Source: an uncultured Clostridia bacterium (GTDB taxonomy: Bacteria > Bacillota > Clostridia > Oscillospirales > Oscillospiraceae). Taken from it: 34,754 nt of DNA. Below the pieces are notes generated by a model. That model was not told the DNA's origin and did no database searches. It saw only the letters and a list, made by a program, of their open reading frames with translations. The stretch covers positions 1-34,754 of the forward strand of contig CAMVOG010000001.1 of the NCBI GenBank assembly GCA_947169005.1. The letters run 5' to 3'. Both the position numbers and the translations under genes were made by a program. Positions 5,206 through 33,187 of the stretch are shown piece after piece (positions within the stretch are counted from its first letter, which is position 1; every line of letters starts with the position of its first letter).

Positions 5206-5260
5206 ATTTCTAACCTCCTATAAAGTACTCGGCATAGTTATAAGCCAACTATTTGCTCAT

Positions 5261-5713
5261 TCAATCTGTGGAGTCCCTCAATTTCGTTCCGCAGGAAACG
5301 CAAAAAACGGTTTTGCCGTCGTATGAAGCGCCGCACTGAGGGCAGGTTTTTATTTCATCCCGCTCCATCTTTGCCCCGCAGGATGCGCAAAACGCAGAGC
5401 CGTTCGGAACATCTTCTCCGCAATTGGGGCATTTGGAAAATCCTTTGATTTGCTTGATTTGTCCCCTGCAATCAGTTATCTGCGTGTTCAACAAGTTGAT
5501 TTCAGAAATCAAGTCGAATTCCTCTGAAGAGGGGTCATCTTTGTGAGTCGCATAGAAGTTTAAGCCGATCGTATAACAACACTCCTTAATTCTCTTTTCT
5601 TTTTCAGAAATGGCGACGTTCAGTTTCACAATCTCTGTCAAGTTTTTGGTCTGCTTTGCGGCGGATTGCCCAACATCTGTAATACTTTTTCCGACCTTTT
5701 CAAAGAAAGACAT
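5261..5713 (-). CDS. Double zinc-ribbon protein with a coiled-coil N-terminal half
   Basis: 150 aa from ATG 5713 (TTG 5758 is an alternative start). 'CPNCGEDVPNGSAFCASCG' and 'CPQCGASYDGKTVFCVSCG'. Local GC is low. Confidence 0.7.
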   Translation of the reverse strand: MSFFEKVGKSITDVGQSAAKQTKNLTEIVKLNVAISEKEKRIKECCYTIGLNFYATHKDDPSSEEFDLISEINLLNTQITDCRGQIKQIKGFSKCPNCGEDVPNGSAFCASCGAKMERDEIKTCPQCGASYDGKTVFCVSCGTKLRDSTD

Positions 5714-5756
5714 AAAGACATAATTATTATCCTCACTTCTAAAAAACCTGAATAAC

Positions 5757-5793
5757 AATAACTGATATCAGACAATAACCAATATCAGTTATT
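5757..5793. promoter_or_regulatory. Candidate operator in the divergent promoter region
   Basis: Perfect 12-bp inverted repeat AATAACTGATAT (5757..5768) / ATATCAGTTATT (5782..5793). It lies between the zinc-ribbon gene and the XRE gene. Confidence 0.5.
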
Positions 5794-5847
5794 AGTGCTA
5801 TACACCATAATCGGTTATGATGCAAGAGAGAATTGGAGTTGATTTCA

Positions 5848-6051
5848 ATGATTTCTTACGCACGATTATGGGAGACGATGAAAGATCGCGGGATCACGCA
5901 ATATGCTCTGATACACAAATACGGCGTCAGTCCGTCGCAGATCACACGCTTAAAGCGAAACGAAAGCGTCAGCACCCACACGATAGACGTGTTTTGCGGT
6001 ATTCTCCACTGCCGCGTGGAAGAGATCATGGAGCATATCGAAGAAAAATGA
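5848..6051 (+). CDS. XRE-family helix-turn-helix transcriptional regulator
   Basis: 67 aa, 'ARLWETMKDRGITQYALIHKYGVSPSQITRLKRNESVSTHTIDVFCGIL'. GGAG lies 9 nt before ATG 5848. Confidence 0.8.
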   Translation: MISYARLWETMKDRGITQYALIHKYGVSPSQITRLKRNESVSTHTIDVFCGILHCRVEEIMEHIEEK

Positions 6052-10664: not shown

Positions 10665-10693
10665 TTGAAAACGCTTCCGATGATCGGTATAAT
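10665..10693 (+). promoter_or_regulatory. Near-consensus sigma-A promoter of the three-gene sensory operon
   Basis: TTGAAA (10665..10670), exactly 17 nt, then TATAAT (10688..10693). Confidence 0.6.
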
Positions 10694-10749
10694 TGTTTAT
10701 AACGCGGAAGAAAAACGGGTCTGTACGGACCGGATTGGAAAGAACGGGT

Positions 10750-12417
10750 ATGGGTGAAGCAAAAAAGACTCTCCGGCGGATGGGCTTTTACTATCTGCTG
10801 ATGGCGATCAATATCATCCCCTGCGCAAACGTGATTCCAGACAGCTTTCCCACCCGGAATCTGTCTACGATCTATCTGCTGATCCTGTGCGTGTGCCTCG
10901 TATTGTATTACGCCCACAGGGTATCTCCGGCCGGCCGCCTTTCGGCCATGATGATGTCGCTTTCATGGATGGCGCTGCTTCTGATCCTGCTGCGCGGGCT
11001 GAAGTACAGCGTTTTTTCCGAGGTCGGCGTTCTGGCCCGGCATATCTGGTACCTGTACTACGTTCCGCTGCTCCTGCTCCCTCTGTTTTTGTTCTATATC
11101 TCTCTTCTCGTCGCGTCGAAGGAATCGACGCGCGGCTCCCGGCTGTGGTGCGGGGCGCTGGTACTGACGGTTCTGTTTATCGCCCTGGTTCTGACGAACG
11201 ACGCGCACCAGCTTGTTTTCCGCTTTCAGCCGGGGTTCCGGCACTGGGACGACAGCTATTCCCACGGCTGGCTCTTTTACACCGTTACGGTCTGGCAATA
11301 TGCGCTCTATCTGGCGGGCATTCTGATCCTGGTGCGCAAATGCCGCGTCAGCAGCGCGAAAAGGAACGCATGGCTCCTTCTGATCCCCTTCGCGTTCGGG
11401 ATCGCCGCGAGCGTGCTTCTGATCACGGGAAAGATGCCGAAGCTGGGCGGCACCAACGCCATCGAGTTTCCCGAGACGCTGATTTTAACGGTTGCGGCCG
11501 TGCTGGAGTGCTGCATGCAGCTGGGGCTGATCCCCACGAACACCGACTACGGAAGGCTGTTTCAGCATTTTTCCATCGCCGCGCAGATCACCGACCAAAA
11601 GGGGAACCCGGTCTACGCCTCCGATTCCGCGGCGCCGCTGACCCCGGCGCAATTTGCCATGGAGGACGGCGGGCGCATGGACGCGCATACCGCGCTGCAT
11701 AAGAAAGCGCTCCCCGGCGGCTTCGGCTTCTGGCAGGACGATCTTACAGAGCTGGACCGGCTGAACGAGGCGCTGGAGGAGGCGAAGGAGGGCCTGGCGC
11801 AGGAGGGAGAGCTGATCCGCCTGCGCGGCGAGCTGAAGGAACGCCGGACGAAGCTGGAGCAGCGGACGCTGGTGTATGACGCCATCGCCCGGCAGACCCA
11901 GAGACAGTCCCGGCTGATCTCCGAGCTGGCGCGGTCCGGCCGCGCGGCAGCGGATGCGGCTGCCAGGGACGCTTGCCGCAAGCGGATCATTCTGCTGGCC
12001 GCCTATATCAAGCGCTACGCGAATCTGATGCTGCTTTCCCGTGAGAGCGGCACGGTGGACGCCGGTGAGCTGGGGCTCTCGTTCGCGGAGCTGCTTCGCC
12101 GCCTGATCGACTGCGGGACCCCCTGTGAGCTCATCCAGAGCGGGGACGGCCTCCTGCCCGCGGAGGCGGCGCTCGCCGTCTTTGAGGCCTTTGAATCACT
12201 GCTGGAGGAAAACGAGGCCTCCCTCCGGGGCGTATTCGTCAAGCTCTCCGCTCACGGGCAGGCGACGCTCAAGCTGACCCTGGAAGATCTGACCGTGCCG
12301 CTTTCCGCCGTCATGGAAGCGCGTCTGCGGCAGTGCGGCGTCGGGCTCGAAAGTCAGCGGGAGGAAAACGTGAGCTACCTATGCTTCACCCTGCCGAAGG
12401 GAGGCGAGCGGGCATGA
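10750..12417 (+). CDS. 7-8 TM sensor-like membrane protein with a coiled coil and a degenerate kinase-like C-terminus
   Basis: About 555 aa from ATG 10750. It has eight hydrophobic segments, then 'DDLTELDRLNEALEEAKEGLAQEGELIRLRGELKERRTKLEQ'. I see no H-box His and no N/G ATP-binding boxes. Its stop overlaps the next start (ATGA). Confidence 0.75.
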   Translation: MGEAKKTLRRMGFYYLLMAINIIPCANVIPDSFPTRNLSTIYLLILCVCLVLYYAHRVSPAGRLSAMMMSLSWMALLLILLRGLKYSVFSEVGVLARHIWYLYYVPLLLLPLFLFYISLLVASKESTRGSRLWCGALVLTVLFIALVLTNDAHQLVFRFQPGFRHWDDSYSHGWLFYTVTVWQYALYLAGILILVRKCRVSSAKRNAWLLLIPFAFGIAASVLLITGKMPKLGGTNAIEFPETLILTVAAVLECCMQLGLIPTNTDYGRLFQHFSIAAQITDQKGNPVYASDSAAPLTPAQFAMEDGGRMDAHTALHKKALPGGFGFWQDDLTELDRLNEALEEAKEGLAQEGELIRLRGELKERRTKLEQRTLVYDAIARQTQRQSRLISELARSGRAAADAAARDACRKRIILLAAYIKRYANLMLLSRESGTVDAGELGLSFAELLRRLIDCGTPCELIQSGDGLLPAEAALAVFEAFESLLEENEASLRGVFVKLSAHGQATLKLTLEDLTVPLSAVMEARLRQCGVGLESQREENVSYLCFTLPKGGERA

Positions 12418-13661
12418 CGGCCTTTGCTTCTCTCTCCGCCCTTGCGCGGGCGCTCTTTGCGCTCTGGGCCCTGCTCCTCTGTCTTGCCAATATCGGCAGC
12501 GCGGTGCTCTCATCGGTCAGACGGCGGTTTCGCTTTGCCGCGCTGGCCCTGCTGCTCTTCCTGCCGGTATATTTCCTGTGGCAGGTGATCTTCGATCTCT
12601 CCCTGTCCCACAGAGGGGGCACCGCCGTCCCGCTCAGCGTGGCCCTGGGCGGCATTCCGCTGATCGCCTGGCTGCCGGTGTTCGCCCTGCTGACAGCGGC
12701 CTCCGCCGTTCTGTTTCTCCGCAATCTCCGTTATGACAGGACCTTCCTTACCCCGGGCACGATCAAGCTCTTCCTTGACGGGCTCCCCTGCGGCGTCTGC
12801 TGCTGGGAGGACAGCGGAAGGGTCCTCTTTTCCAACGTGTGCATGAATCGCCTCTGCGCCGCCGTGACGGACGGTCCGCTGCTCAACGGCAATCAGTTTT
12901 GGGAGGCGGTCTCCGCCAGGATCCTCACCCTGGATGGGACGGTGTGGCGTTTTTCCTGCCGGGAAATGGATCTGGACGGCCAACGTCTGCATGAGATGAT
13001 CGCCTCGGACGTTACGGCGGAATACGCCAAGACCATGACCCTGGAGCGGGACAGGGTGGAGCTGGCCCGGCTCAACGAGCAGCTTCGCAGCTACTATCTC
13101 AGCATCGACGAGGTCGTGAGCCGGCAGGAGGTTTTGCAGGCAAAGGTGAACATCCACGACGAGATGAACCGGCTGATGCTTTCCACGACCGCCGCGGACG
13201 CCGCAGACGAGGAGGAGCTGGACCGGGTCTTCTCCCTGTGGGAGCAAAACGCCCTGCTGCTGTGCATGGAGGCCGGCAGCGACCGGGATACCCGGGCAAT
13301 CGACAGCCTGGAGCAGCTTGCCGCGGCGCTCAGACTCCGGCTCGTCTGGCAGGGCGAGCTGCCGGAGGCCCTTTCGGAGCGGCAGCGCAGTCTGTTCTTT
13401 TCCGCCGCGCAGGAGGCCATGGCCAACGCCGTCAAGCACGCGGAGGCCAAAGCCGTGACGCTGTCCTTTGACGAGAGCGAGGCGGCGCTTTGCTGCCGCT
13501 TTTCCAACGATGGGAAGGCGCCCCCCGGCCCGGTGAGCTTTACCGGAGGGCTGCGGAATCTTGCGCTCCTGGCGGAGCAGCAGGGCGCGTCCGTTTCGGT
13601 CAGCGCCGAAAACGGCTTTACCCTCTCCCTCTGCTTTCCGAAACATCAACCGAACGGCTGA
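12414..13661 (+). CDS. Sensor histidine kinase (HisKA_3/NarX-DesK type)
   Basis: 415 aa from ATG 12414. It has N-terminal TM segments, an H-box-like 'KVNIHDEMNRLML' and an ATPase region 'AAQEAMANAVKHAEA...GGLRNLALLAEQQG'. Confidence 0.85.
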   Translation: MTAFASLSALARALFALWALLLCLANIGSAVLSSVRRRFRFAALALLLFLPVYFLWQVIFDLSLSHRGGTAVPLSVALGGIPLIAWLPVFALLTAASAVLFLRNLRYDRTFLTPGTIKLFLDGLPCGVCCWEDSGRVLFSNVCMNRLCAAVTDGPLLNGNQFWEAVSARILTLDGTVWRFSCREMDLDGQRLHEMIASDVTAEYAKTMTLERDRVELARLNEQLRSYYLSIDEVVSRQEVLQAKVNIHDEMNRLMLSTTAADAADEEELDRVFSLWEQNALLLCMEAGSDRDTRAIDSLEQLAAALRLRLVWQGELPEALSERQRSLFFSAAQEAMANAVKHAEAKAVTLSFDESEAALCCRFSNDGKAPPGPVSFTGGLRNLALLAEQQGASVSVSAENGFTLSLCFPKHQPNG

Positions 13662-13717
13662 TGCGCTTTTGCGCCGCATCGGGTAAACTGACAGAAAAAC
13701 CGGAAGGAGGTGCCGAA

Positions 13718-14356
13718 GTGGCGTACCGTGTTTTGATCGTGGAGGACCAGGCCATCCCGCGGGAGCTGTTTGAGATCTACGTCCACGCTTCCCCGCAGTT
13801 TGAGCACGTGCTCTCGATCGCCAACGCCTCGGCGGCCCTCTCGGTCTGCCGGAACAACGCGGTGGATCTGATATTGATGGACGTGATGACCGAGCTGGGG
13901 CAAAGCGGACTGGACGCGGCGGAGCAGATCAAGCGGGAGTTCCCGCAGATCAGGATCATCATCGTCACCTCCATGCCCGAGTATTCCTGGCTCAGCCGGG
14001 CGCGGAGGATCGGGGTGGATTCCTTCTGGTACAAGGACGGCCACAAGGACGGCATTCTGGACGTGATGGAGCGGACCATGGCGGGGGAGCACATTTATCC
14101 GGACGAGACCCCTCTCATCCGCATCGGCAACACCACCAACCGGGAATTCACCGAACGGGAGCTGGAGATCCTCAAGGAGCTGACCACCGGAGATACCAAC
14201 GCCGAGATCGCCCGGCGGCTCTGCGTATCGGTGGCCACGGTCAAAAGCCACATCCTGCATCTGATGGAGAAGACCGGCTTCCGGACCCGCACGGAGCTGG
14301 TATCCGAAGCCAGGGGACTGGGCATCGTGATCAAGGACAGGCGGGAGGAAGAATAG
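13718..14356 (+). CDS. NarL/LuxR-family response regulator
   Basis: GTG 13718 lies 7 nt after GGAAGGAGG (13702..13710); ATG 13661 is an alternative. REC domain 'RVLIVEDQ...DLILMDV', LuxR HTH 'LTERELEILKELTTGDTNAEIARRLCVSVATVKSHI'. Confidence 0.9.
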   Translation: MAYRVLIVEDQAIPRELFEIYVHASPQFEHVLSIANASAALSVCRNNAVDLILMDVMTELGQSGLDAAEQIKREFPQIRIIIVTSMPEYSWLSRARRIGVDSFWYKDGHKDGILDVMERTMAGEHIYPDETPLIRIGNTTNREFTERELEILKELTTGDTNAEIARRLCVSVATVKSHILHLMEKTGFRTRTELVSEARGLGIVIKDRREEE

Positions 14357-14374: not shown

Positions 14375-14403
14375 GGCCGGACGCGCATGCCGCGCGTCCG
14401 GCC
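14375..14403 (+). repeat. GC-rich palindromic element, copy 1
   Basis: 12-bp stem GGCCGGACGCGC / GCGCGTCCGGCC with loop ATGCC and no T tract. Its 27-nt core (14376..14402) recurs at 14562..14588. Confidence 0.7.
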
Positions 14404-14468: not shown

Positions 14469-14480
14469 ATAGATGAAAAC

Positions 14481-14506
14481 GTGAGGGGGAGTCCCCTCCC
14501 CCTCAC
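14481..14506 (+). other. 11-bp G/C hairpin in the leader region
   Basis: GTGAGGGGGAG / CTCCCCCTCAC with a 4-nt loop. Confidence 0.7.
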
Positions 14507-14561
14507 AGACCCCCATGCGAATCCGCAAGGGTCAGTTTATGTTTACGTTTGTTTACAGTCT

Positions 14562-14594
14562 GCCGGACGCGCATGCCGCGCGTCCGGCTTTCTT
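14562..14594 (+). terminator. GC-rich palindromic element, copy 2, with a T tract (terminator/attenuator-like)
   Basis: The 27-nt core is identical to 14376..14402 and is followed by TTTCTT. It lies about 100 nt upstream of the giant-gene ATG. Confidence 0.5.
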
Positions 14595-14695
14595 ATGGCA
14601 AAAATCAGCCGATCGGTTGATGCGGGGCAGAGAGCCTTCTGCTATGCTTACAATTGGGTTATACTACAACGCTCAAACAGAACGGAGGTCCGCAT

Positions 14696-17600
14696 ATGAA
14701 GAATCATCCCATCCGGCGCGCCCTCAGCGTGGTGCTGAGTCTGGTCATCGTGCTTGCGCTGATCCCGGCGATCTCACCGACGGCCTTTGCCAATATGCAT
14801 TATCACGGCCATGAAGTCAACGGCGACAGCGTGACGCTGTACTATTCCTGCAACACCTGCGGCGCGGATTATGAGGTCGACGCGAGCCTCGAGGATTATA
14901 TCAATGACGGCTGGCTGCCGATCATCGAGGCGGACTGCACCGACATTGAGCTGAACACCGACTATTGCCAGATGTGTTTTATGGACCACGTCTGTATGGA
15001 GTGTCTGACGCCCATAGAGGAGTGCGAATCGTTCTGCTACAACTGCCACCAGTGCTGGGACTGTGAGAACGATAATCACTGCAGAAGATGCGGCCAGTGC
15101 ACCAACGAGATGTGCGAGGATTGCCTGGAGGTCGATATCCATCTCTGCGTGGACTGCCACGAGGACTACTCCAAGTGCGAGGGCTGCGGCCGCTGCCTCT
15201 ACGCGCTGATGAAAACGGAGGAGGTCTGCTTCAACGAGCAGATCCGGGATACGCATTGCACGACCTGCGACGAGCCCTGGGTCTGCATCGAATGCGGATA
15301 CTGCTTCTATCATCGCGAGGAGTGGTTCTGCTCAACCTGCGATATGTGCCTGGAATGCGCGCGAGAAGCGGGCATGCACTGCAAAAGCTGCGTCGGCTGT
15401 TTTGACAGCGAGGTGGAGCTCTGCGAGGAAAGCGGAGAGCTCTGCCTGGACTGCTGCGTCGAGGCCGGCAACCACTGCGAGATCTGCGGCGATCACGTCG
15501 ACGAGTGGTGCGAGGGCGGGAAGGACTGCCGCCACTGCGCCGACTGCGCGATGGATCAGGGCTGGATCTGTGAAAGCTGCGGCCAATGCGTCATCTGCAA
15601 CGGCCTGGAAAACTGCGAGGACTGCGGCTACTGCATGGAGTGCTGCCTGGAAAACCGGGCGGACGCCGGCTGCGAATGCCTGGAGTTCTGCCCGGAAAGC
15701 GCGGATTTTGAGAACGAGGAGCATATGTGCGCCCAGTGCATGGCGCATTTCTCCTGCGAAAATGATTTCTGCGAGTTCTGCGGCCTCTGCGAGGATTGCT
15801 GCCGGGATAACGCCGAGGCGGAGGGCTGCGTCTGCGGCCTCTGCGTGGAGGACGGTGAATTCGACCAGCACGTCTGCTCGCAGTGCGGCGAGCCCACCTG
15901 TACCCGCGGCGATTTCTGCGACGTCTGCGGCCTCTGCGCGTCCTGCTGCCTGGAAAATTCCGAGGCGGCGGGCTGCTCCTGCGGCATCTGCGTGGAGAGC
16001 GACGAGTTTGAGGACGCGTTCCACAAGTGCAGCGGCTGCGGGGCGCGCTTTTCCTGCAGCGTGGATTTCTGCGAGAGCTGCGGCCTGTGCGCATACTGCT
16101 GCAAGGACGATCCTGCCGAGGTGCAGTACCACGGCAGCAATACCGAGCCCGGCACGATCTTCCTGCAGCCCTCCGACCGGACGAGGGCCGTTTCCCGCAA
16201 TAACGTCTACGACCGCGCGGAAAACACGGTCTCCTTCCGCGTCCGGGCCTATGATCCCCTGGGCGGCCTGCGGTATCAGTGGTACTATACGGTGGACGGC
16301 GGCGAGCCGGTGAAATTAGTGAACGCCGGTCATACCATCGAAGCATACGGCGAAACGCTCGTCCTTGTGGGTGGCGCGGAGACGGATACCCTGACCGTCG
16401 CCGTTCCCTGCGACGCCTGCCACAGGGAGTACCGTTATTTCTGCGTCGTTTCGGACGGCGGCGGAACGGTGCTCTCCACCTCCGAGGGCGCGCGGCTCTA
16501 TGGCAGGCACAGCTTCGCCTGGCAGCGCCTTGACGACGAGTACCATCAGCAGATCTGCGTGGGCGAGGGCTGCGGCGAGACCGAAGGCGGCATGAAGAAG
16601 GCCCACGAGATCGGCCCCTGGAGATTCGTGAGCTATGCCACCGCCACCCAGGGCGCCAGAATGGCGCGGAGCTGCAGCGTCTGCGGCAGCGTCTGCGAGA
16701 GCACGGTCACGGAGCCCCTCGGCGCCGACCACACGGCCCACGATTACGTCTATACCCCGGTGATCGGCACGAACGCCGACGGCGATCCCGTCTCTCACGC
16801 CCACGTCAGACTCTGCCGCTGCGGCAGACAGGACGGCGGAGAAGAAGCCCACGTCTGGGGTATGTGGATCGTCACCCAGCCCGCCACGGAGAACAAAAAG
16901 GGCTCCAAATACCACGACTGCCTGCTCTGCCATTACCGGGAGACGGTAGAGATCCCGCGCCAGACCCACGAGCACCTCTGGAACCTCCACGACTATGAGG
17001 CGGAGTTCTATCGCGGCGGATACAGCAGCAAATCCCACTTCCAGTACTGCGGCGACCCGGACTGCAACGCCGTCGCCTTCGTGGAGCCCCACGTCTATTC
17101 GAGCTGGAGCTGGCAGACGGAGACCGGCACGCCCAACCTGGGCCTGAAGGACGCGACGATCAAGCGGACCTGCGAGATCTGCGGCTACGTGCAGGAAAAG
17201 ATCATCCACAAGGATTATCGCCCGCTCTGCTTCCAGAACGCCAACCTCACCGCCGTTTCCGCCGACAACCGCTGGAGCAGCAATAAGTATACCCGCAGCG
17301 TCACGGCGGCCCCGCCTCCGGGCTACTATTTTACCTACTGGGAAAACGTGGGGCAGGGCCCCATCAAGTTTGAGGAATACCATGAGGAGGTCCCCTATCT
17401 GGGCACCGTCTGGAAGACCTATACCAAGACTGACGAGACCATCGTGATCTCTCTGGATAACTTTGACGCGGACGGAAACTACCTCCCGCTGGAAACCATC
17501 TACGAGCTGCGCGCCAACGTGGAGCGCTATGACAACAACGTCATCCTGTACGATACGAATCGCAGCCCGGTCTATACCCTGACCCCGGAGGAGGATATGG

Positions 17601-20600
17601 CGGACAACGGGCTCTTCGGCGCCCCGGCCGTGAAGGACGAGGCCAGTCTCATGGGCGCGGACCACGGCGTGATCTGGTATGAGTCCCAGACGGAGGACGA
17701 ATACGGCTACCGCACCGTGACCCTGCATCTGAACGGTTATGACGGCGGCGCCATCGAGCTGGAGGACACGGGGCTGCCCTGCAATCTCCACATCATCGTG
17801 GACGGGGATTCCGATATCACCACCACCGGGCAGCAGGGCATTCTGGGCTGCCTGACGGGCGGCGACGTGACCGTTTCCTCCCCCAACGGCTCAGAGCTGC
17901 GCATCAACGTGCGCAGCGGCAAGGAGGACTGCTACGGCATCCGCACGGGCCGCGCGAGACAGTACCACAGCGACAAGCTCACCCTCTGCGGCAGCGTCAG
18001 CGTGCAGATCAACGTGACCAACACCTTCGGCAGCTCCCTGGGCGCGGCCTACGGGCTCTACTCCAACTCCTGGGTGGCGCTGGAGGAGGACGCCTCGGCG
18101 GAGATCACCGTCGGCAGCTACGCCTACGACGTGGCCTATGACGGGCAGGTGCTCGTTTCGGCGGCGGCCATCCACGCGGACAAGGAGCTGCAGCTCAACA
18201 CCACCGGGCATCTCTTTATCGACGCCTCCAACGTGGACGTTGCCAACGGGCGGAAGGGCCTGGGGATCGACGCCAAGAACACCCTGATCGACAACGTGGG
18301 CCAGATGGAGATCACCTATCCCGCAAACACCCGGAATGCCTATAATCACGCGCCGACCTATGACCCGCAGCGCTTCATATTCCTCGCCTCCGACGACGGC
18401 ATGAGGCGCTTCGTCAAAAACGGCGTCGCCGTGTCCGTTCACCCGGTCAGGCATCTGCTGGTCGAGCCGGGTTATCCCGTGCACTTCGATGTGGCTGAGG
18501 GCGGGACGCTGAACGTGGAGAGCGTTTATCAGAATGCCGCCGGGGACTATCTGGTGCGGCCCGGGGACAGCCTTGTTTTCTACACGGCCCCGGCGCCGGG
18601 ACGCTGCAACGAGACCGTGCTCGTGGACGGGAGCTTCGTCAAGCCCGGCGCCTCCGACGACGGCGTGCGGACGAAATACGTGCTGGAAGCGGTGAACGGC
18701 CCCCACACGGTGAAGGTGGGCAATGGGGTGCTCTTTGTGCCCTTCGCCTCCCAGCCGAAGCTGTCCCAGACGGACGTGTTCTTCGGCAGTGAGGCTTATC
18801 TCACCTACCGCATGAACGACGTACTGCAGGCGCTGAAGAGCCATGAACAGTTCGGCGGCAGCGCCTCGGCCGACCCGAAGTTTGCCGTACAGGGGCAGAG
18901 CGGCAGCTACAGCGGCGGCAAACCGCTCAGCGGCAGCCAGACCATCAACCGGGTATTCCTGCAATACAAAAACGAGCTCAGCGGCGAGTTTGAAAACACC
19001 GGCGTCAGCTTCACGCCCACGATCCTCGGCAGCGTCAGCTTCACCGACGAAAAGAACGCCGCGGCGCTGAAAACCGTCCGCTATCGCCTGATGGTGCTGT
19101 ATGACGGCATGGAGTACACCTCCGACGAGTTTACCGTCCACTGGACGGACGACCCTAACGACGCGCCGGAGAAGATGACCGCGGCGGTGGAGCTCTACAT
19201 AAAGAACGGCAAATTTGCAAACGGTGCGAGCTGCTATGACGGCGGCGCCTGGGTGCGGCTGGACAGTAAAACCGACGTGCTGGTTTACGACGTTTCGGGC
19301 AGCGAATGGTTCGGCCGCGCCATGTCCGGATCGGACTACGCCCGAAACAGAAAAACGGGCGACCTGATCCTCTTCGCGGAGTTCGATTACCACACCGGCG
19401 TTCTCACGCTCTTCGGCGATCATTACTACGTCGATTTTGACGGCGACGGTGAAGAGGAGTGGTACGACCTCGGCGGAGAGATCGCGGCGATCCGCGTGCC
19501 GGAGGAGGACGCCGCGGGAACGCTCGTCATCAACGTGCAGGACGACACCTGGATAGAGGGCGATTACGACGCCTTCGGCTGGGACGCCTGGAACTACGGC
19601 GACGGCAGCCTCGTCCGCGGGCAGCAGCTCTACGCCCAGACCGACCTGATCGTCAATGAAAACGGCGGCGTCCGCGTCACGTCGAAGAGCGGCGCGGTGC
19701 TCGACCTGGACCGCTGCGGCAGCATGCTCCACGAATCGGAAGCGAGGGAATACGCCGGCATCCGCGCCTCCGGTGATATCAGCATAGAGGGCGACGTGAG
19801 CGTGCAGATCGGCATCGGCCTCAACAGCCTCTCCGTCTGGTGGAACAACTACGGCGCGGACCGCTATGGCCTTGTAAGCGAGGGCGCGGTCACCGTCCGG
19901 GACACCGCTTATCTGCGGGTCCGCTTCACAGCGCCCGAGGGCAGGCACATGATCGGCGCCGCCACGGGCATCCACGCGGCGGAGATCATGCTTACGGGCG
20001 ATTCCGTGACGGAGCTGGACTGCAGCTCCGACAGCGTCCACGATAACGTTACCTGTTACGTCCTCTCCACGGAGGCTCTCAGCGTTATGGAGAGCGCCGG
20101 GCTCACGGTTACGGCGCAGGGCGATATCCCCATCCCCATCTGGGTGGATGGCGATATCCTCCTCGCCACCGACGACACCGTGACCGTAAACGCTCTGGGC
20201 AGCGGCGAGGCCACGAACTGCTTTGAGTACGCGGGCGAAATGCACATCATGGCGCCCACGGCCCTCAAGGCCGCCTACCGGGACGGCACGGAGGACGCCG
20301 GCCTCGTGTATTACCTTGAGCCCGTCCTGGACGGCGACTTCGTCATCTATCACAGAGCGGGCAGCGAAACGGAGAACGGGCTTGCCTCGGAGCAGTACTA
20401 TCCCGGCGTTCCCTACGCCGTCACAGTGAATACCGACCCCGGCGTGGACACCAACAACGAATACACCGGCTACGAGGAGAAGTACCCCTCCCACAGCGTG
20501 ACGGTAGAGCGCGGGGGCGCTGCCCTCTACACCCGGACGGGTACGCCGGAGAGCCTCGACGTCTGCGCGGGCGACCGGGTGACCTACACCGCGGCGGAGC

Positions 20601-23521
20601 CCATCACCGGTTATGCCTTCGGCGGCTGGGCGCTCACGTCGAACCTGACGCCCGAGGAGCTGGTGATCGAGGGCCGCTCGATCTCCTTCACCATGCCGGA
20701 TCGGGACGTTTCCCTCCACGCGGTCTATACCTGCGAGGCCTTCAGCGCCGAGCCGCCGCTCTTCGTCTTTACGGACAGCGACGCCACCGAGGGGCTCCTT
20801 TACTGGCGGGTCGATACCGAAATCCCGTCGGTCCAAGCCGTGGTGCTGGAATATCTCACGGAAAACGAGAACGGCGAGAGCCAATGGACCCCCCTCTACC
20901 GCTACGAGGACGGCGCCTGGCAGGGCTGGGATATGAAGGAGGACATGCAGACCTGTACGAACGGCACGACCGGCGAGCGCTACTACGCGGGGGTCTCGCG
21001 CATCGGCCGCGCCGGGGTGAGCGCGCTTCCAAGGACCGTGAACACGGACGTATCCACGACCTACCGCCTCTATTTCTGGGGCAACGTGGAATATTACAGC
21101 CAACCCTTTACCATCGACCCGAAAAACGGCGTCCACGTTCTTCTCTCGCAGGACGCCGCGTCTCCCGACCTCGTGATCCCCGCGGATTACGTCGGGACGG
21201 AATATACCGTCGATCTGTCAAGATACCTCTACGCGGATTACGGCAGCATGAGCTATTCGGTAACTCTCGGCGACCTCTTCGGCCCGCTGGACGGCGGCGT
21301 GTGCGAGGCGAGCGTATTTGAAAACGGGATGCTGCGCTTCGTCCGCAACGGTGCGCATGGGCCCATCTACGGCATAGAGGGCTCCGCCTGCGTCACCGCG
21401 ACGGACGGGAAGAGCGGCAGGTCCTTCCGCATCCCCTTCGATTTCGGCGATATCTACGACGCCGAGGTCTATCCGCTGATCGTTTCCGGCAGGAAGGTCA
21501 GCTCCCACAACAAGGACGACGTCCTTGGGGACGGCACGGTCTCCTATGACCCGGAGACCAAGACCCTTACGCTGGAAAACGCCGCGCTGGACGAGCTCTA
21601 TCCAATGCCCTCCGACGGCGGGCTGCCCGGCGCGGCCTACGCGGTCGTGGCCGCGCGGGATCTGACCGTCCGTCTGATCGGCGAGAACGTCATTTCCGCC
21701 GACGCCAGCTCCTACTGCCACGGCCGGGCCGACCACAGCTTCAACGGCCCCATCGTCGGCATCGGCAACGCGATCAACGAGGCCTGGCGGCCCTCTCTGA
21801 CGGAGGAGGACAGCTTCGCCATCACCTTTGAGGGCCCCGGCTCGCTCTCGATCCGGGTCGGCGGGGATTCCGGCGCCGCGATCCACGCCATCGGTGACGT
21901 GACCGTGAACGGCGCGGAGCTGACGCTGCGCGCCGGCTACAGCGGCCTCACTTCGGAGAACGGTTCCTTTATCATGAACGCCGGAACGGTGGATATCGAT
22001 ACCGCGCAGATGAGCTGCGTCGAGCTCTCCGGCAGCACGGCCCGCTTCACGGTGAACGGCGGCACGCTGCGGCTGAACGGCGGCACGGACAGCTATGCGG
22101 TATCCATGAGCGCCACTGACTATCAGAACGCGGAGTATTTCCAGCTCTATGACGGCGAGCTGCTCCTGCAGACCAAATCGGCAGCCTGGGACCTGAGTAG
22201 CCGCGATATGTACTACACCGATTGGATGTACAAGGCCCTGGACGCGGAGGGGAACGACGCCCACGACGCCGTGGAGGCGCCCGCCACGATCCGGACGCTG
22301 GATTATCTGAAATTCATCCGGATCTACCCCATCTGGGTCAACGGCGAGCAGTTCACCTCGGAGCATCTGACCGTTGCCTGCGGCTACGGCAGCGCCGTCT
22401 ATGAGCCGACAACGAACACGGTCGCGCTCAACAGCGCGAAGATCACCAGAGGCGTCGCCTATTGGTGGGGCGGCGAGATGGCCTCGGGCATCTATGCCCA
22501 GCAGCCTGTCAAGCTCAGTCTCTCCGGCTTCAGCACGATCGACCTGTCCTCCAGGACCTATCTGGACCGGAACGGCCGACCCTATGAGCTTCTGGATGAA
22601 GAGACGGAGAACGGCCGGAAGCTGTATGGCCTGTACGTTGACAACGTCTATGAGGCCGCGGACCCCGTCCTTGACCTTTGCGGGGCGGGAAGCCTCACGG
22701 TCAAGGGCGTGCAGACCGGCATCGAAACCAACGCCGTGCCGATCTCCGTGAACGGCCCCAGGCTGAACATTGCGGGCTGTGAGGGCGGCATCAGCGCCGA
22801 TATGACGGTGAACGCCGGCGCACTCACGATCGCGGCCTCGGCCTACGGCATTTACGGAACGTTGGATACGGCTCAGTATGGGCCTCTCTACGCCTACGGC
22901 GGCGCGACGCGGGACGAGAGCGTTCTGCTCGAGCTGGAGGAAACCGGGGCGGCGACGGATCGGGGCTGGGGCTATAGCTTCCCGTATTTCAGACTCGGCG
23001 GCTCTGAATGGAGCGTCGCCGGGGCGCAGGTAAGCGGCACGGCGGCGAGCTGGAACGACGTGGACGACGCGGTGTATCTGCTCTGCTCCTCCGCCGTTTC
23101 CGAGGCGGATATCCGGGCCGCGTGGGAAAACGGCAGCTACGCGGCGCTCCCGGGCGCCGCAGTCCCCGCGGAGAAGGGCGGGATCAGCGCCGCCGCCGTG
23201 GACGGCAGGGCGATGTACGCCCAGAACTTCTCCTTCTCCGGCGTGGCGGAGGGCGACTATAAGCTGGCCGTCTGCAAGCCGGACCATTATCCCCTGATCA
23301 CGGCGGTGACCGTTGCCGGTGATACGGCGCTGGGAACGCTGCGGCTCACGCTGCGCGGCGACGTGAACGAGGACGGACAGGCAGACCTTGCAGACGTCCG
23401 CCTGCTCTTCCACGCCGCCTCCGGCGCAGAGACGGCATCCGGCCCGGCGGCAGACGAGAACGGGGACGGCCGCGTGAACAACCGGGATGCGATTCTTCTT
23501 TTCCGCCGGATCGTATCATAA
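14696..23521 (+). CDS. Giant (2,941 aa) secreted multidomain protein: hyper-Cys CxxC region, Ig-like, His/Cys modules, beta-helix-like repeats, C-terminal dockerin
   Basis: ATG 14696 follows GGAGG (14684..14688). The signal peptide is 'MKNHPIRRALSVVLSLVIVLALIPAISPTAFA'. The frame stays open for 8.8 kb and ends in 'GDVNEDGQADLADVRLL...DENGDGRVNNRDAILLFRRI', a pair of dockerin Ca-binding repeats. Confidence 0.9.
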   Translation: MKNHPIRRALSVVLSLVIVLALIPAISPTAFANMHYHGHEVNGDSVTLYYSCNTCGADYEVDASLEDYINDGWLPIIEADCTDIELNTDYCQMCFMDHVCMECLTPIEECESFCYNCHQCWDCENDNHCRRCGQCTNEMCEDCLEVDIHLCVDCHEDYSKCEGCGRCLYALMKTEEVCFNEQIRDTHCTTCDEPWVCIECGYCFYHREEWFCSTCDMCLECAREAGMHCKSCVGCFDSEVELCEESGELCLDCCVEAGNHCEICGDHVDEWCEGGKDCRHCADCAMDQGWICESCGQCVICNGLENCEDCGYCMECCLENRADAGCECLEFCPESADFENEEHMCAQCMAHFSCENDFCEFCGLCEDCCRDNAEAEGCVCGLCVEDGEFDQHVCSQCGEPTCTRGDFCDVCGLCASCCLENSEAAGCSCGICVESDEFEDAFHKCSGCGARFSCSVDFCESCGLCAYCCKDDPAEVQYHGSNTEPGTIFLQPSDRTRAVSRNNVYDRAENTVSFRVRAYDPLGGLRYQWYYTVDGGEPVKLVNAGHTIEAYGETLVLVGGAETDTLTVAVPCDACHREYRYFCVVSDGGGTVLSTSEGARLYGRHSFAWQRLDDEYHQQICVGEGCGETEGGMKKAHEIGPWRFVSYATATQGARMARSCSVCGSVCESTVTEPLGADHTAHDYVYTPVIGTNADGDPVSHAHVRLCRCGRQDGGEEAHVWGMWIVTQPATENKKGSKYHDCLLCHYRETVEIPRQTHEHLWNLHDYEAEFYRGGYSSKSHFQYCGDPDCNAVAFVEPHVYSSWSWQTETGTPNLGLKDATIKRTCEICGYVQEKIIHKDYRPLCFQNANLTAVSADNRWSSNKYTRSVTAAPPPGYYFTYWENVGQGPIKFEEYHEEVPYLGTVWKTYTKTDETIVISLDNFDADGNYLPLETIYELRANVERYDNNVILYDTNRSPVYTLTPEEDMADNGLFGAPAVKDEASLMGADHGVIWYESQTEDEYGYRTVTLHLNGYDGGAIELEDTGLPCNLHIIVDGDSDITTTGQQGILGCLTGGDVTVSSPNGSELRINVRSGKEDCYGIRTGRARQYHSDKLTLCGSVSVQINVTNTFGSSLGAAYGLYSNSWVALEEDASAEITVGSYAYDVAYDGQVLVSAAAIHADKELQLNTTGHLFIDASNVDVANGRKGLGIDAKNTLIDNVGQMEITYPANTRNAYNHAPTYDPQRFIFLASDDGMRRFVKNGVAVSVHPVRHLLVEPGYPVHFDVAEGGTLNVESVYQNAAGDYLVRPGDSLVFYTAPAPGRCNETVLVDGSFVKPGASDDGVRTKYVLEAVNGPHTVKVGNGVLFVPFASQPKLSQTDVFFGSEAYLTYRMNDVLQALKSHEQFGGSASADPKFAVQGQSGSYSGGKPLSGSQTINRVFLQYKNELSGEFENTGVSFTPTILGSVSFTDEKNAAALKTVRYRLMVLYDGMEYTSDEFTVHWTDDPNDAPEKMTAAVELYIKNGKFANGASCYDGGAWVRLDSKTDVLVYDVSGSEWFGRAMSGSDYARNRKTGDLILFAEFDYHTGVLTLFGDHYYVDFDGDGEEEWYDLGGEIAAIRVPEEDAAGTLVINVQDDTWIEGDYDAFGWDAWNYGDGSLVRGQQLYAQTDLIVNENGGVRVTSKSGAVLDLDRCGSMLHESEAREYAGIRASGDISIEGDVSVQIGIGLNSLSVWWNNYGADRYGLVSEGAVTVRDTAYLRVRFTAPEGRHMIGAATGIHAAEIMLTGDSVTELDCSSDSVHDNVTCYVLSTEALSVMESAGLTVTAQGDIPIPIWVDGDILLATDDTVTVNALGSGEATNCFEYAGEMHIMAPTALKAAYRDGTEDAGLVYYLEPVLDGDFVIYHRAGSETENGLASEQYYPGVPYAVTVNTDPGVDTNNEYTGYEEKYPSHSVTVERGGAALYTRTGTPESLDVCAGDRVTYTAAEPITGYAFGGWALTSNLTPEELVIEGRSISFTMPDRDVSLHAVYTCEAFSAEPPLFVFTDSDATEGLLYWRVDTEIPSVQAVVLEYLTENENGESQWTPLYRYEDGAWQGWDMKEDMQTCTNGTTGERYYAGVSRIGRAGVSALPRTVNTDVSTTYRLYFWGNVEYYSQPFTIDPKNGVHVLLSQDAASPDLVIPADYVGTEYTVDLSRYLYADYGSMSYSVTLGDLFGPLDGGVCEASVFENGMLRFVRNGAHGPIYGIEGSACVTATDGKSGRSFRIPFDFGDIYDAEVYPLIVSGRKVSSHNKDDVLGDGTVSYDPETKTLTLENAALDELYPMPSDGGLPGAAYAVVAARDLTVRLIGENVISADASSYCHGRADHSFNGPIVGIGNAINEAWRPSLTEEDSFAITFEGPGSLSIRVGGDSGAAIHAIGDVTVNGAELTLRAGYSGLTSENGSFIMNAGTVDIDTAQMSCVELSGSTARFTVNGGTLRLNGGTDSYAVSMSATDYQNAEYFQLYDGELLLQTKSAAWDLSSRDMYYTDWMYKALDAEGNDAHDAVEAPATIRTLDYLKFIRIYPIWVNGEQFTSEHLTVACGYGSAVYEPTTNTVALNSAKITRGVAYWWGGEMASGIYAQQPVKLSLSGFSTIDLSSRTYLDRNGRPYELLDEETENGRKLYGLYVDNVYEAADPVLDLCGAGSLTVKGVQTGIETNAVPISVNGPRLNIAGCEGGISADMTVNAGALTIAASAYGIYGTLDTAQYGPLYAYGGATRDESVLLELEETGAATDRGWGYSFPYFRLGGSEWSVAGAQVSGTAASWNDVDDAVYLLCSSAVSEADIRAAWENGSYAALPGAAVPAEKGGISAAAVDGRAMYAQNFSFSGVAEGDYKLAVCKPDHYPLITAVTVAGDTALGTLRLTLRGDVNEDGQADLADVRLLFHAASGAETASGPAADENGDGRVNNRDAILLFRRIVS

Positions 23522-24781: not shown

Positions 24782-24815
24782 GGGACTCCGGGAAACCGGA
24801 GTCCCTCACGTTTTA
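24782..24815. terminator. Hairpin terminator between convergent genes
   Basis: GGGACTCCGG (24782..24791) / CCGGAGTCCC (24796..24805), loop GAAA, then TCACGTTTTA. Confidence 0.6.
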
Positions 24816-25172
24816 GTAGTGGTAGGTCGGCGTCTGATCCTCGCGGCGGGTCTTCCGGTCGTGGCAGCGCTTACACAGCGGTCGCCAGTTGCTCCGGTCC
24901 CAGAACAACTGCTCATTACCTCGGTGCGGGACGATGTGGTCCACCACAGTGGCCTTCGTGTATCTGCCGTCCTTCATGCACTCTTCGCAGAGCGGGTGCG
25001 CCTGCAGGAAAGCACGGCTGGCCTTCTGCCACGCTCTGCCGTAGCCACGGCTGGCGGCGGACCGGACCTCCTCCGGGTGCAGGGGCTTGTGCGTCTCGCA
25101 GTACTTAGTGCCGGAGGGAACAAGCGCAGCACAGCCGGGATGCTTACACGGTACCTTCGGTTTCGTAGGCAT
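24813..25172 (-). CDS. Phage HNH endonuclease
   Basis: 119 aa from ATG 25172. 'CEECMKDGRYTKATVVDHIVPHRGNEQLFWDRSNWRPLCKRCHDRKT'. Confidence 0.85.
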   Translation of the reverse strand: MPTKPKVPCKHPGCAALVPSGTKYCETHKPLHPEEVRSAASRGYGRAWQKASRAFLQAHPLCEECMKDGRYTKATVVDHIVPHRGNEQLFWDRSNWRPLCKRCHDRKTRREDQTPTYHY

Positions 25173-25389
25173 CAGCGCACCAGACCCCATTCCGCAAAAG
25201 CCGAAGGTCGATCTGGATGGCCAGCGTCCGCTCCCGTTTCTCCGACAGGAACTGCGGCAGCAGCAGATGCGGAGCCAGCGGCACGAAGCCCCGGTCCACG
25301 GCATGGCGGCAGTAGCGCCGTGCCATCTCTGCGTTGTGCTGCTCGTCCCCGGAGAACTTGGAGCAGATGTAAACGATCTTGCGTTCCAA
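25144..25389 (-). CDS. DUF4406-like small phage protein
   Basis: 81 aa. TTG start 8 nt after AAAGGAGG. 'KIVYICSKFSGDEQHNAEMARRYCRHAVDRGFVPLAPHLLLPQFL'. The C-terminal end looks atypical. Confidence 0.6.
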   Translation of the reverse strand: MERKIVYICSKFSGDEQHNAEMARRYCRHAVDRGFVPLAPHLLLPQFLSEKRERTLAIQIDLRLLRNGVWCADAYETEGTV

Positions 25390-25464
25390 AGCAGAATCCT
25401 CCTTTCGTTGTTCTGCTTTCCTACGCCCAGCACGGCCCCGGATTTACAAAAGAAAACCAAAAAA

Positions 25465-25811: not shown

Positions 25812-28800
25812 TTACGGCGCCATCGCCAGCGTGGCGACGTCGCTCGTGACGGTCCGGCCATATTTGTCGGTGACGACGCACCAGACCTGCCGCCCGGACT
25901 TGCTCGGCACCATGGCGACGGAATAGGTGGGGCCCGTCAGACCGCTCCTGAACGTCCGCCCGTTGGCCTCCCTGCCGTACCACTGATAGGTCAGCCCCTC
26001 GCCGTCGGCGGCCACGGTGGTGGCGGCGATCTCGCCCCGCGCCACGGTGACGCTCCCCGGCTGGCCCGTGATGCTCGGGCCGTGGTATTCCGTCGGGATC
26101 ACCATCGTCAGCGTGAAGACCGCGCTCTCGGTCTTTTTGCCGTAAGCGTCCGTGACGACGCACTTGACCTGGCGGCCCGACTTCGACGGGACCATCTTCA
26201 CGGAATAGGTGTCGCCCTTGAGGCTGCTGCGGCTCCAGGGGGCGTTTTCATCGGCGCGGAGATACCACTGATAGTGCAGGCCATCGGCGTCCCCGTTCGG
26301 GCCGGCGGCGGTGACGGTAACGCTGGCCAGCTCGCCCGCGTCCACGTCCGTATGGATATCGCCCTCGCTGACAGTGACGGTGGGGCGCTCATAGCCCGCG
26401 GGCCTGTCGTAGCCGATGGTGACGGGCTCGCTCGTCGCGCTGTTGCCCCAGGCGTCCGTGACGACGCACCAGACCGTGCGCCCGTCGCGGGCGGCGGTCA
26501 TAGCCACGGAATAGATCGCGGCGTCCGGGCCCTTGATGTTGCTCCGGCTCCGGCTCTCGCTGCCCTTGTTCTGAATGTACCACTGATAGTGAAGCGCTCC
26601 GTACCCCGTGGCCGCCACGGTGACGAAGGCCGTCTCGCCCGGGCTGACCTTCGCGCTCGTGTTCACCTCGTCAACGGTGACGGTCGGGGCCTCGTAATCC
26701 TCGGGATAGGCCACGCTCAGGATCGCCTCGCGGGTGGTGACGCTGTTGCCCTCGGCGTCCGTGATGACGCACCAGACGGTGCGGCCGATCTTGCTCTTCA
26801 CCAGGGCCACGGAGTAGGTGTCGCCCTTGAGGGAGCTTTTGAACTCCCGCCCGTTGGCCTCTCTGCCGTACCACTGGTAAGTCAGCCCCTCGCCCTCGGC
26901 GATCACGGTAGTGCTGGCGATCTCGCCCAAAGGCACCGCCACGTCCGCGGGCTGCTGCAGGATGGTGATGGGGTCGTCAGGGAACAGGCCAACGGGTCTG
27001 GTCTCGGTCTCGCCGCAGTTGGCGCAGACGCGGATCTCCTCGCCGGGCTCGCTTTCGGTGGGCTCGATCGTGCGCATCCACTCGCTCCAGTCGTGGCCGA
27101 GAGCATTGGTGTAATCGTCCTCATAGCTGTCACCGCAGCGGGAGCAGGTATAAACGGTGCAGCCGCCCTCCGTGCAGGTGGGGTCGTTGACGACGGCGTC
27201 ATAGTGATGGCCAAGGGCCGCCACCGGCTGCGTCTCGGTCTCGCCGCAGCGGGCACAGATGCGGGTTTCTTCGCCCAACTCGGTGCAGCCGGGTTCCATC
27301 GTTTCCTCCCACTTGCCCCAGTCGTGGCCGAAGATCGAGCAAACGCTCACCGTTGTAACGGTTACCTGCGCCTCCGCGTCAGCGGGATCATCGCCGCGCA
27401 CCGCCATTCCGCTGACCGTTACCTCGCCGACGATCTCGCCCGCGTACACGTCGTCCTCGGTCACGACGTAGACAAACGAGACGGAAATTTCTTCGCCGGG
27501 GGCCAGAATAAAGCAGTCGCTGCTGAAATCGGCCTGAGAGCTTTCGATGACGACGTCTTCCACCGCAACATCGCCCGCGTTGCGCACCGTCGCAGTGAAG
27601 GTGATCTCGTCGCCGACAGTCACGGAGTCGGTTTTGTCCGCCGCCAGCTCGGCCTCCAGCACCGCCTGCGGCACCGCGAGGAGCACGCTGACCTCAGCGT
27701 CCGCGTCCTCGGGAGCATCGCCATAAGCCGCAAAGGCATAGGCTGTGAGTCTGAACGAGAGCAGATCGTTGTATGCGAAGTCCTCCGCCGTCACCTGGTA
27801 GGTAAACGTGAAGGCAGTCGTATCGTCAGGCTCCAGCTCGAATTCGCAGCCTTCAAGCTCAATGAGCTCATTGCCGTCCTGGTCGAGCACCCAGCAATTC
27901 CCCACGCCGCCGCTCAGGGAAACGTTGCCCGCGTTGCGCACCGTCGCAGTGAAGGTGATCTCGTCGCCGGCGTTCACGGCAGCATCCGAATCCGCCGTCA
28001 GGTCGACCTCCAGCGCCGCCTCTGCCTTCGCCATCGCGACGTTCACGGACAGGCTGTCACTTTCGTCAAGCACGAAGGAGAAGTCCTCCGCGGGGAGATA
28101 GCCCTCCGCGGGCTCGATCATGCGCAGCGTATACTCTCTGCCGATCGCCAGCCTTGTGATCTCGTGCGCCTCGCAGCCGCTTTCCCACGCTTCCACCAAG
28201 CCGTCCTCATCGTCAAGGACCTCCAGGGCCGCGCCCGCGACGGGATCGCCGGTGACCGCGTCCACGGTATTGATGATCGTCCGCGTCGGATCTATACGGA
28301 TGGGCAGGATCACGTCCCCGTTATCCTCCGGGAGGATCTCGTCACCGCCGCTCATGACCGCGCCGTCGGCTTCAAAATAGAAGACCGGCTCAGTGTCCGG
28401 GGGGATATATCCCTCCGGCACGGCGCTCACCCGCAGGGTGTATTCCTCGCCCGCGGTCAGCCCTTCCAAACAATAGGGCTCGCTGCCGCTGGTCCACTCA
28501 TCCACGACGTCGCCGTCGGCGTTCAGGATCTGCATGACAGCGACCTCCAGCCGATTGCCGTCTGCGTCCACCGCGTCGAAGCGGACGCGGGTCTTTTCAA
28601 ACTCCACCAGCAGGACGGGGTTGTCCTCATCGTCCGTCGTGGTGCTGCCGTCGTAATCCACGCTGCCGTCGGCGTTGAGGGAGAAGATGGTATCCGCCGG
28701 GAGCAGATAACCCTCCGGCGCGCAGTCCGCGTGCAGGGTGAATTCCGCGCCCGTGAAAAGCCCATCTCTGCAATGGGTCTCGTTGTTGGAGCTGCTCCAT

Positions 28801-31968: not shown

Positions 31969-32025
31969 CTGCCCTCAGCTCCTTCTGCATAAAAGAAAAA
32001 AGCCGCTGTCGCGACTTTTTCTTTT

Positions 32026-33183: not shown

Positions 33184-33187
33184 AATT

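Follow-up and report, generated by a model that had tools for sequence, protein, structure and literature searches.

Among the closest described systems to the domain considered here are two zinc-binding modules, ZBD1 and ZBD2 (equivalent to CTD2 and CTD4), of the immunoglobulin A (IgA) protease of the gut Firmicute Thomasclavelia ramosa, described in two 2025 papers (PMC12237041, PMC12415215). The modules possibly constitute a new metal-binding fold, in which predicted His2Cys2 and Cys3His zinc sites join small beta-sheets into a stalk (PMC12237041, PMC12415215). They exhibit no disulfides despite 24 cysteines, and metal sites have been suggested to stabilise the domains in the place of disulfides (PMC12237041); the role of zinc has been proposed to be stalk-like and purely structural (PMC12415215). 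Cysteine is usually scarce in the proteins that bacteria export, and aerobic Firmicutes actively exclude it from them (PMC2823432). The DNA analysed here, referred to as the window, is a stretch of 34,754 nucleotides from an uncultured Clostridia bacterium of the family Oscillospiraceae (contig CAMVOG010000001.1, assembly GCA_947169005.1). A gene on its forward strand (14696..23521, from the list of open reading frames, ORFs) encodes a 2941-residue secreted, dockerin-bearing surface protein with a hyper-cysteine domain near its N-terminus (14795..16102, forward strand; ORF residues 48-483), delimited by cysteine counts, conservation and an AlphaFold2 model. This is a real conserved domain with a sizeable family, and it forms the N-terminal part of a conserved cassette. 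On balance, it is probable that the domain folds outside the cell around about two dozen Cys4 or Cys3His sites, with Zn(II) as the most probable metal, to form a rigid acidic head.

Exact residue-to-nucleotide mapping places the hyper-cysteine core at 14846-16102 on the forward strand (residues 65-483), where 87 of 419 residues are cysteine (20.8%), against 39 of 2536 in the remainder of the protein (1.5%); the binomial probability of at least 87 cysteines in this region is 5e-69. The 86 successive cysteine spacings up to residue 483 include 44 that are exactly CxxC and five that are CC. The core contains 94 aspartate and glutamate residues, 16 lysine and arginine residues, 15 histidines and 33 aromatic residues (17 Phe, 10 Tyr and 6 Trp). 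The initial annotation, made from the sequence alone, had reported about 87 cysteines in about 420 residues, mostly in CxxC or CC spacing, within an acidic background of scattered histidine and few lysines or arginines. Exact counting agrees with each of these statements, and both strings that it quoted are present, at residues 128-149 and 321-331. Three tandem repeats of about 50 residues lie within the domain (15671..16102, forward strand; residues 340-391, 392-440 and 441-483), recognised by their Cys/His pattern. Each possesses 11 cysteines and one conserved histidine in the order C-x-C-x2/3-C ... H-x-C-x2-C ... C ... C-x2-C-x2-C-x2-CC, and the number of such repeats varies among homologues.

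Conservation was determined from an alignment of the window domain with five divergent homologues that are about 31-47% identical. The initial annotation regarded cysteine positions that vary among homologues as a finding that would speak against its proposal, but the positions are retained: identity across the five homologues is 94% for cysteine, 71% for histidine, 65% for glycine and 59% for tryptophan, against 31% for all non-cysteine residues. The conserved ligands of the window domain amount to 85 cysteines and 11 histidines, with C95 and C124 as the only non-conserved cysteines. A scan of species-representative genomes gave seven loci, all in metagenome-assembled genomes (MAGs) of gut or rumen Clostridia. 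One locus, in Ruminococcaceae RUG14283, shows 90-94% identity, and RUG14283 is thus essentially the window's organism. The other loci belong to a roe-deer caecum Clostridia bacterium, an Acutalibacteraceae bacterium, Candidatus Stercoripulliclostridium, a second RUG14283 contig and two further Clostridia MAGs. The loci span 38% to 62% GC, and since the protein domain is conserved across this range, neither base composition nor a wrong reading frame can account for it.

When 1.84 billion cluster representatives (clusters at 50% identity) were searched exhaustively with HMMER, 142 matched at E<=1e-3; the number is 98 with a limit of E<=1e-10 and 31 with a limit of E<=1e-30. A word-indexed protein search, even one that used a family profile, returned only four to seven relatives, all of them fragments without names or precomputed Pfam domains, and the family became visible only through the exhaustive search. 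P0005 (NCBI MBQ7144786.1) is both the closest full-length relative and the sole named relative found; it is entered as 'carbohydrate-binding domain-containing protein [Oscillospiraceae bacterium]'. As defined in this work, the family lies directly after a signal peptide, contains at least 17% cysteine over 180-730 residues, has CxxC chains of no more than four cysteines and is strongly acidic; it comprises the window protein and 105 other members. Nearly all members are 800-3600 residues long and begin with a hydrophobic signal sequence that is followed directly by the cysteine-dense region, which holds 41-161 cysteines at a density of 0.17-0.26 and in which acidic residues always far exceed basic ones.

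Some homologues are interrupted. At L002 (1901-3250 and 3343-4023), the homologue P0002 stops where an opposite-strand gene starts that resembles, by eye, an IS3-family transposase, and was probably cut by an insertion element. At the P0004 locus (L001 470-7760), an in-frame stop and a frameshift divide the homologue so that three ORFs result. These split or cut homologues may be decaying genes or assembly errors. At two other loci (L006 5761-9933 and L007 758-3574), the gene directly upstream of the hyper-cysteine gene encodes another large secreted protein, with 38 and 18 cysteines, respectively, which may be a paralogue built of Cys/His modules.

The window protein carries a Sec-type signal peptide, MKNHPIRRALSVVLSLVIVLALIPAISPTAFA (14696..14791, forward strand; residues 15-46), read from the sequence, with the layout MKNHPIRR-ALSVVLSLVIVLALIPAI-SPTAFA, ending in AFA before N47. 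An N-terminal hydrophobic stretch is present in 95 of the 105 family members, and a strict twin-arginine translocation (Tat) motif in none of the 105. Both results are in keeping with the earlier claim that the region follows a Sec signal peptide. Tat export by way of the window's IRRALS was considered and rejected, since homologues do not keep its two arginines and the strict motif is absent throughout the family. The C-terminal anchors of the family vary: Dockerin_1, three SLH domains, a membrane helix with a basic tail and, in P0135, a type A sorting domain of the type IX secretion system (T9SS; TIGR04183, with a score of 30.2 bits where the cut-off is 23). Every one of these anchors is extracytoplasmic, which, together with the lack of strict Tat motifs, favours a head that folds outside the cell. 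The full-length homologues in L004 and L007 have the same architecture as the window protein, with a linker rich in Pro, Gly, Asn, Asp and Glu, a membrane helix and a KKKK tail in place of the dockerin; this fixes, independently, the location of the N-terminal cysteine-rich domain outside the cell and at the end of the chain opposite the anchor.

The gene neighbours of P0135 include the families Lnb_N and DUF4468, which we take to be associated with Bacteroidota. The family spans two phyla, with Clostridia and at least one T9SS-bearing Bacteroidota member. The idea that most C-terminal tails of the form 'GIYIxNGKKV' are T9SS signals was abandoned, as hidden Markov model (HMM) searches supported it in only one of five tested. 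In the window protein, the anchor is a C-terminal type I dockerin (23357..23512, forward strand; residues 2902-2953), which matches Pfam PF00404 at E 1.1e-6 (a score of 29.1 bits, where the gathering cut-off is 22.9) and also gives weak matches to dockerin chains in the PDB, so that the protein is dockerin-bearing as initially described. The passenger regions between head and anchor differ among members and include BspA-type LRR, LRR_4, Big_2, Flg_new_2 and CBM_X2 domains; the window protein contains a divergent InlB B-repeat (Flg_new_2; 20561..20731, forward strand; residues 1970-2026; PF18998, E 2.6e-8, with a score of 34.2 bits where the cut-off is 23.6). The position of the head at the end opposite the anchor, and its conservation before such varied passengers, suggests that it is functionally important.

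The family consensus shows an N-terminal cassette in which the hyper-cysteine domain is followed by an immunoglobulin (Ig)-like domain (QPxD...YQWY...YYCVV) and then by three Cys/His modules. The initial annotation had recognised neither this cassette nor the extent of the family over two phyla. In the window protein, residues ~500-615 (16151..16498, forward strand) are probably an Ig-like domain, judged from the motifs QPSD...YQWY...YFCVVS, which are kept in the family consensus; the only match in HMM searches is a weak similarity to Ig-lambda (E 0.52). The three modules, of the type of the IgA protease zinc-binding domains, occupy 16499..17221 on the forward strand (residues 616-686, 705-774 and ~775-856). 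The first two (16499-16711 and 16766-16975) match the T. ramosa IgA protease (PDB 9qa6_A) in two stretches with a phmmer E of 9.3e-10, and the putative third, extending to ~17221, was recognised visually by its repeat pattern. The family member P0101 matches 9qa6_A at E 5.8e-34, and Pfam has no model for Cys/His modules of this type.

The arrangement of ligands was analysed family-wide in terms of chains, defined as successive cysteines spaced exactly as CxxC (three apart). There are 2259 single cysteines, 1082 chains of two, 820 of three and 790 of four, followed by only four chains of five and one of seven. The chance that a chain is extended is about 50-60% up to four cysteines and then falls to 0.6%. 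A histidine at position -1 or -2 precedes 68% of three-cysteine and 35% of two-cysteine chains but only 1% of four-cysteine chains, indicating that histidine plus three cysteines is interchangeable with four cysteines. The commonest order, cleanest in P0101, is a four-cysteine chain, 7-8 residues, a histidine with a three-cysteine chain, 6-8 residues and another four-cysteine chain. Ligands in fours with histidine replacing cysteine point to tetra-coordinate metal sites, of which this pattern is a signature, and disulfides have no use for histidine.

This grammar bears on the proposal that the head is a disulfide-knotted scaffold, stiffened by a dense lattice as in EGF, granulin, insect antifreeze proteins and Giardia's variant-specific surface proteins (VSPs). 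A cysteine density of ~20% in an exported domain would suit such a lattice, and the Giardia VSP, a CxxC-rich protist surface protein, offers an analogue that is described as protease-resistant (PMC6341118). However, the conserved histidine in place of the first cysteine of four-cysteine chains is sensible for metal ligands and not for disulfide bonds. Cysteine counts are not biased towards even numbers (of 106 members, 47 have an even and 59 an odd count, and the window domain has 87), and this flat parity, although a noisy measure, is weak evidence against a complete pairing of cysteines in disulfides. The family's hosts are anaerobes of gut and rumen, the related IgA protease modules do without disulfides, and no thiol-disulfide oxidoreductase gene is present among the window's neighbours. 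A disulfide lattice is rather unlikely given these observations.

Four-ligand metal sites are favoured by the quartet grammar with its histidine substitution, by the lack of an even bias in cysteine counts and by the adjoining zinc modules of the IgA protease type. In the mechanism proposed, the protein would leave the cell unfolded through Sec and would then fold around many tetrahedral metal-thiolate sites, each Cys4 or Cys3His and most likely occupied by Zn(II). CxxC knuckles would form each site, set in tight beta-hairpins with short helices after them, and the window protein would contain ~24 sites if each conserved ligand is used once. In the anoxic gut or rumen, the thiolates would stay reduced, and the metal sites would take the role that disulfides have in oxic extracellular proteins, stapling a core-poor and very acidic chain into a rigid head, which may be protease-resistant, solely by analogy with the Giardia VSPs. 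The head, the Ig-like domain and the zinc modules would be displayed on the long passenger, and the dockerin would tether the whole to the cell or to a cellulosome. The domain, its family, its topology and its ligand grammar are shown by the sequences, whereas which metal is bound, how many sites exist and whether the role is structural or adhesive are inferred. The initial annotation had left the choice between a metal-binding (Zn or Fe-S) and a dense disulfide scaffold, and the evidence narrows this towards four-ligand Cys/His metal sites.

Several points weigh against a head stapled by zinc. The number of cysteines per domain, or of cysteines plus flanking histidines, is not enriched family-wide for multiples of four, and so the total of 85 + 11 = 96 ligands in the window domain is not a general rule. 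The extreme acidity of the region (94 acidic and 16 basic residues) adds to the negative charge of the thiolates; ferredoxins and rubredoxins share such acidity. Free zinc is expected to be very low in sulfidic gut fluid, which leaves the loading of extracellular sites unexplained. To our knowledge, there is no well-known precedent for one metal bound by a contiguous C-x2-C-x2-C-x2-C chain; the sites may be cross-braced between chains or may share bridging thiolates.

An AlphaFold2 model built with 47 sequences has a mean pLDDT of 87.4 and a pTM of 0.61, and residues 100-430 mostly score above 90. A first run with five sequences (pLDDT 62.9) was set aside, its Foldseek matches being noise. The recurring unit of the model is a beta-bridge, six residues, a second beta-bridge and then a short helix from the third or fourth cysteine, which is the knuckle-plus-helix geometry of treble-clef and zinc-ribbon fingers. 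A Foldseek search of the PDB with the 47-sequence model gave a best E of 0.46 and query-normalised TM-scores of no more than 0.07; Foldseek is weak on small metal-knuckle modules, and it is for the complete assembly that a known fold is lacking. Pfam contains no match to the cysteine-rich part of the window protein, searched whole, as the region and as sub-regions, or of 15 other members (hmmscan at E<=1 for the whole protein and E<=10 for the region, HMMER filters discarding most matches above ~E 0.1), and NCBIfam contains no match to the region. Sequence searches of the PDB with profiles A1 and A3 and with P0101 returned nothing significant for the cysteine-rich part (best E 0.03-0.06), and 9qa6 is absent among the matches of the region with profiles A1 and A3. 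The sub-threshold matches are mostly zinc domains (ZZ, LIM, RanBP2, C2H2, DHHC-CRD and RCHY1), together with two Fe-S proteins and one likely chance match, and their composition weakly suggests sites of the zinc type. The region had not been recognised as a known Firmicute surface domain in the initial annotation, and no match to a characterised cysteine-rich family appeared in these databases; full-text literature searches found no paper on such a bacterial motif or domain. The hyper-cysteine family is undescribed, and the predicted fold is probably new.

The predicted structure also bears on two non-structural roles. A metallothionein-like sponge, by which the cell would buffer thiophilic metals (Zn, Cu, Cd) at its surface or detoxify them there, would be consistent with the very high cysteine content, the CxxC and CC motifs, the cation-attracting acidic background and the large number of putative sites per molecule. 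Such a role is unlikely, however, as the 33 aromatic residues, the conserved glycine and tryptophan and the confident, fixed predicted fold are unlike metallothioneins, the domain occurs in every case as a fusion at the tip of a giant, adhesin-like protein, the passengers of which vary, and no metal-resistance genes lie near the window gene. It is extremely improbable that the domain is a sacrificial shield that protects a strict anaerobe by trapping oxygen, reactive oxygen species or electrophiles with free thiols at the surface: although each molecule would hold ~85 thiols at a distance from the cell, bulk scavenging would require neither the strict positional conservation, nor the regular four-ligand grammar, nor the rigid predicted fold.

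The quartets could instead bind iron, as rubredoxin-like Fe(Cys)4 centres or Fe-S clusters, and act as an extracellular electron conduit. The CxxCG knuckles and CxxCxxC triplets resemble the ligand patterns of rubredoxin and ferredoxin, the strong acidity is as in ferredoxins, and anoxic habitats rich in iron and sulfide permit spontaneous cluster assembly. The polyferredoxin FwdF is, at E 0.03, the best of the sub-threshold PDB matches, which also include a weakly matching 4Fe-4S protein (E 0.06-0.16). However, a regular-expression search of the whole protein found no CxxCxxCxxxCP ferredoxin motif, as the initial annotation had noted, and Pfam hmmscan found no match to the Fer4 profile in the whole protein or in the region. 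The lack of a strict Tat signal in the 105 members means that cofactor insertion in the cytoplasm is not possible, which counts against redox-active iron, as do the frequent histidine substitution, typical of zinc sites and rare in 4Fe-4S sites, and the lack of electron-transfer partner genes nearby. The multiple conserved CxxCH motifs of multihaem c-type cytochromes are likewise absent: the region contains only two CxxCH motifs, at residues 128 and 165, of which only the latter is conserved, and across the family a histidine straight after a CxxC chain is rare (1-7%). Redox-active iron is quite unlikely. Its variant with ~two dozen closely spaced redox centres, a self-loading extracellular protein wire on the tips of giant surface proteins of gut anaerobes in two phyla, is very unlikely; if it were true, the wire could exchange electrons with insoluble substrates, with partner cells or with oxygen.

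The longest ORF at the locus extends over 14654..23521 on the forward strand (2955 codons counted from its first TTG, at 14654). The true start is likely to be the ATG at 14696 rather than this TTG, because GGAGG is present at 14684-14688, 7 nucleotides upstream, and because P0001, a near-identical metagenomic fragment, begins at the same methionine (MKNHPIRR). A perfect 25-nucleotide palindrome, CCGGACGCGCATGCCGCGCGTCCGG, occurs twice in the intergenic region before the gene (14377-14401 and 14563-14587), with 0 occurrences expected by chance. The first copy directly follows a response-regulator gene, the second is a terminator-like hairpin ~110 nucleotides before the start of the giant gene, and a further hairpin lies at 14480-14507. 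Directly upstream, on the same strand as the giant gene, are an ORF for a 7TM-type histidine kinase (10693-12417), a histidine-kinase-like ORF assigned by eye and without a Pfam match (12333-13661) and a LuxR/GerE-type response regulator (within 13490-14356). The near-identical contig L008 of RUG14283 carries the same upstream gene as the window by tblastn and ORF comparison. A regulatory link to this two-component system is not claimed, as the synteny is absent at the distant homologous loci L006 and L007.

Downstream, two large surface-protein genes on the reverse strand (25812-28877 and 28899-31106) form a small cell-surface gene cluster with the giant gene; one of the pair carries SpaA, DUF7507 and CARDB domains, and the other carries GH88, SpaA and Flg_new_2. 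The reverse strand of the window also encodes an HNH endonuclease (24813-25460) and a small protein with an N-terminal zinc-ribbon and DUF6273 (4360-5205), which is unrelated to the hyper-cysteine domain. Islands of low GC are present at 5001-6000 (0.44) and 32001-34754 (0.41-0.45) against a background of ~0.63, and a T5orf172/DUF2924 gene (34014-34673, reverse strand) within the second island suggests that this island is foreign or mobile DNA.

If the proposed head is correct, an extracellular domain that is one-fifth cysteine, with perhaps at least 20 metal sites, would be a very dense natural metal-thiolate array, and strict anaerobes would have a general route to rigid extracellular architecture in which metal staples replace disulfides. 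This would extend the 2025 proposal for the IgA protease stalk modules. The family, of at least 142 clusters at 50% identity, heads giant and otherwise unannotated surface proteins in rumen and gut Clostridia and at least one Bacteroidota. Defining it would annotate a recurrent unknown of gut metagenomes and point to the functional end of presumed adhesins. A counterpart of the predicted fold is absent from the PDB, and the domain is also a possible protease-resistant display scaffold, as the Giardia VSPs have been.

The known systems that resemble the domain differ from it in distinct ways. Giardia VSPs (PF03302) are likewise extracellular, CxxC-rich and found in an anaerobic gut organism, and they have been reported to bind metal. 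They possess about half the cysteine density, however, and lack the grammar of four cysteines or histidine plus three cysteines; they are eukaryotic and end in a membrane helix and CRGKA tail, whereas the window protein gives no Pfam match to PF03302 and ends in a dockerin. In zf-CXXC domains (PF02008), CxxCxxC triplets (two CGxCxxC units) are each completed by a distal cysteine, binding two zinc ions in ~45 residues, and a CC pair is present. The likeness is limited to this logic of a triplet plus a distal ligand, as zf-CXXC is a nuclear, basic, DNA-binding single unit, unlike a 400-residue acidic extracellular array, and Pfam gives no match to it. Polyferredoxins (Fer4 repeats, such as FwdF) of clostridia and archaea share tandem cysteine quartets, acidity and an anaerobic setting, but the hyper-cysteine domain is exported by Sec, has histidine in the place of cysteine and contains neither the CxxCxxCxxxCP motif nor a Fer4 match. 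Metallothioneins share the very high cysteine content, the CxxC, CxC and CC motifs and the many metal-thiolate sites; they are small and cytosolic, have few or no aromatic residues and adopt no fixed fold in the absence of metal, whereas this domain has 33 aromatics, conserved secondary structure, a confidently predicted fold (mean pLDDT 87.4) and a place within a 2941-residue surface protein.

The T. ramosa zinc-binding domains, also termed 'metal-associated periscope domains', are, like the hyper-cysteine domain, located in the extracellular part of a surface protein of a gut Firmicute, and in both, four-ligand Cys/His sites are proposed to replace disulfides and to stiffen an extended structure. 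Modules homologous to them lie directly downstream of the hyper-cysteine domain in the same protein. The hyper-cysteine domain itself has no sequence match to 9qa6 and carries ~96 ligands in 420 residues, compared with ~12 in the ~130 residues of ZBD1, a density that is several times as high. Its sites would be mostly Cys4 or Cys3His, whereas those of the zinc-binding domains are His2Cys2, and it is N-terminal, whereas the zinc-binding domains adjoin the anchor. The hyper-cysteine domain falls in a known class, which comprises extracellular modules that are stapled by metal at Cys/His sites and the surface proteins, rich in CxxC, that anaerobes carry.

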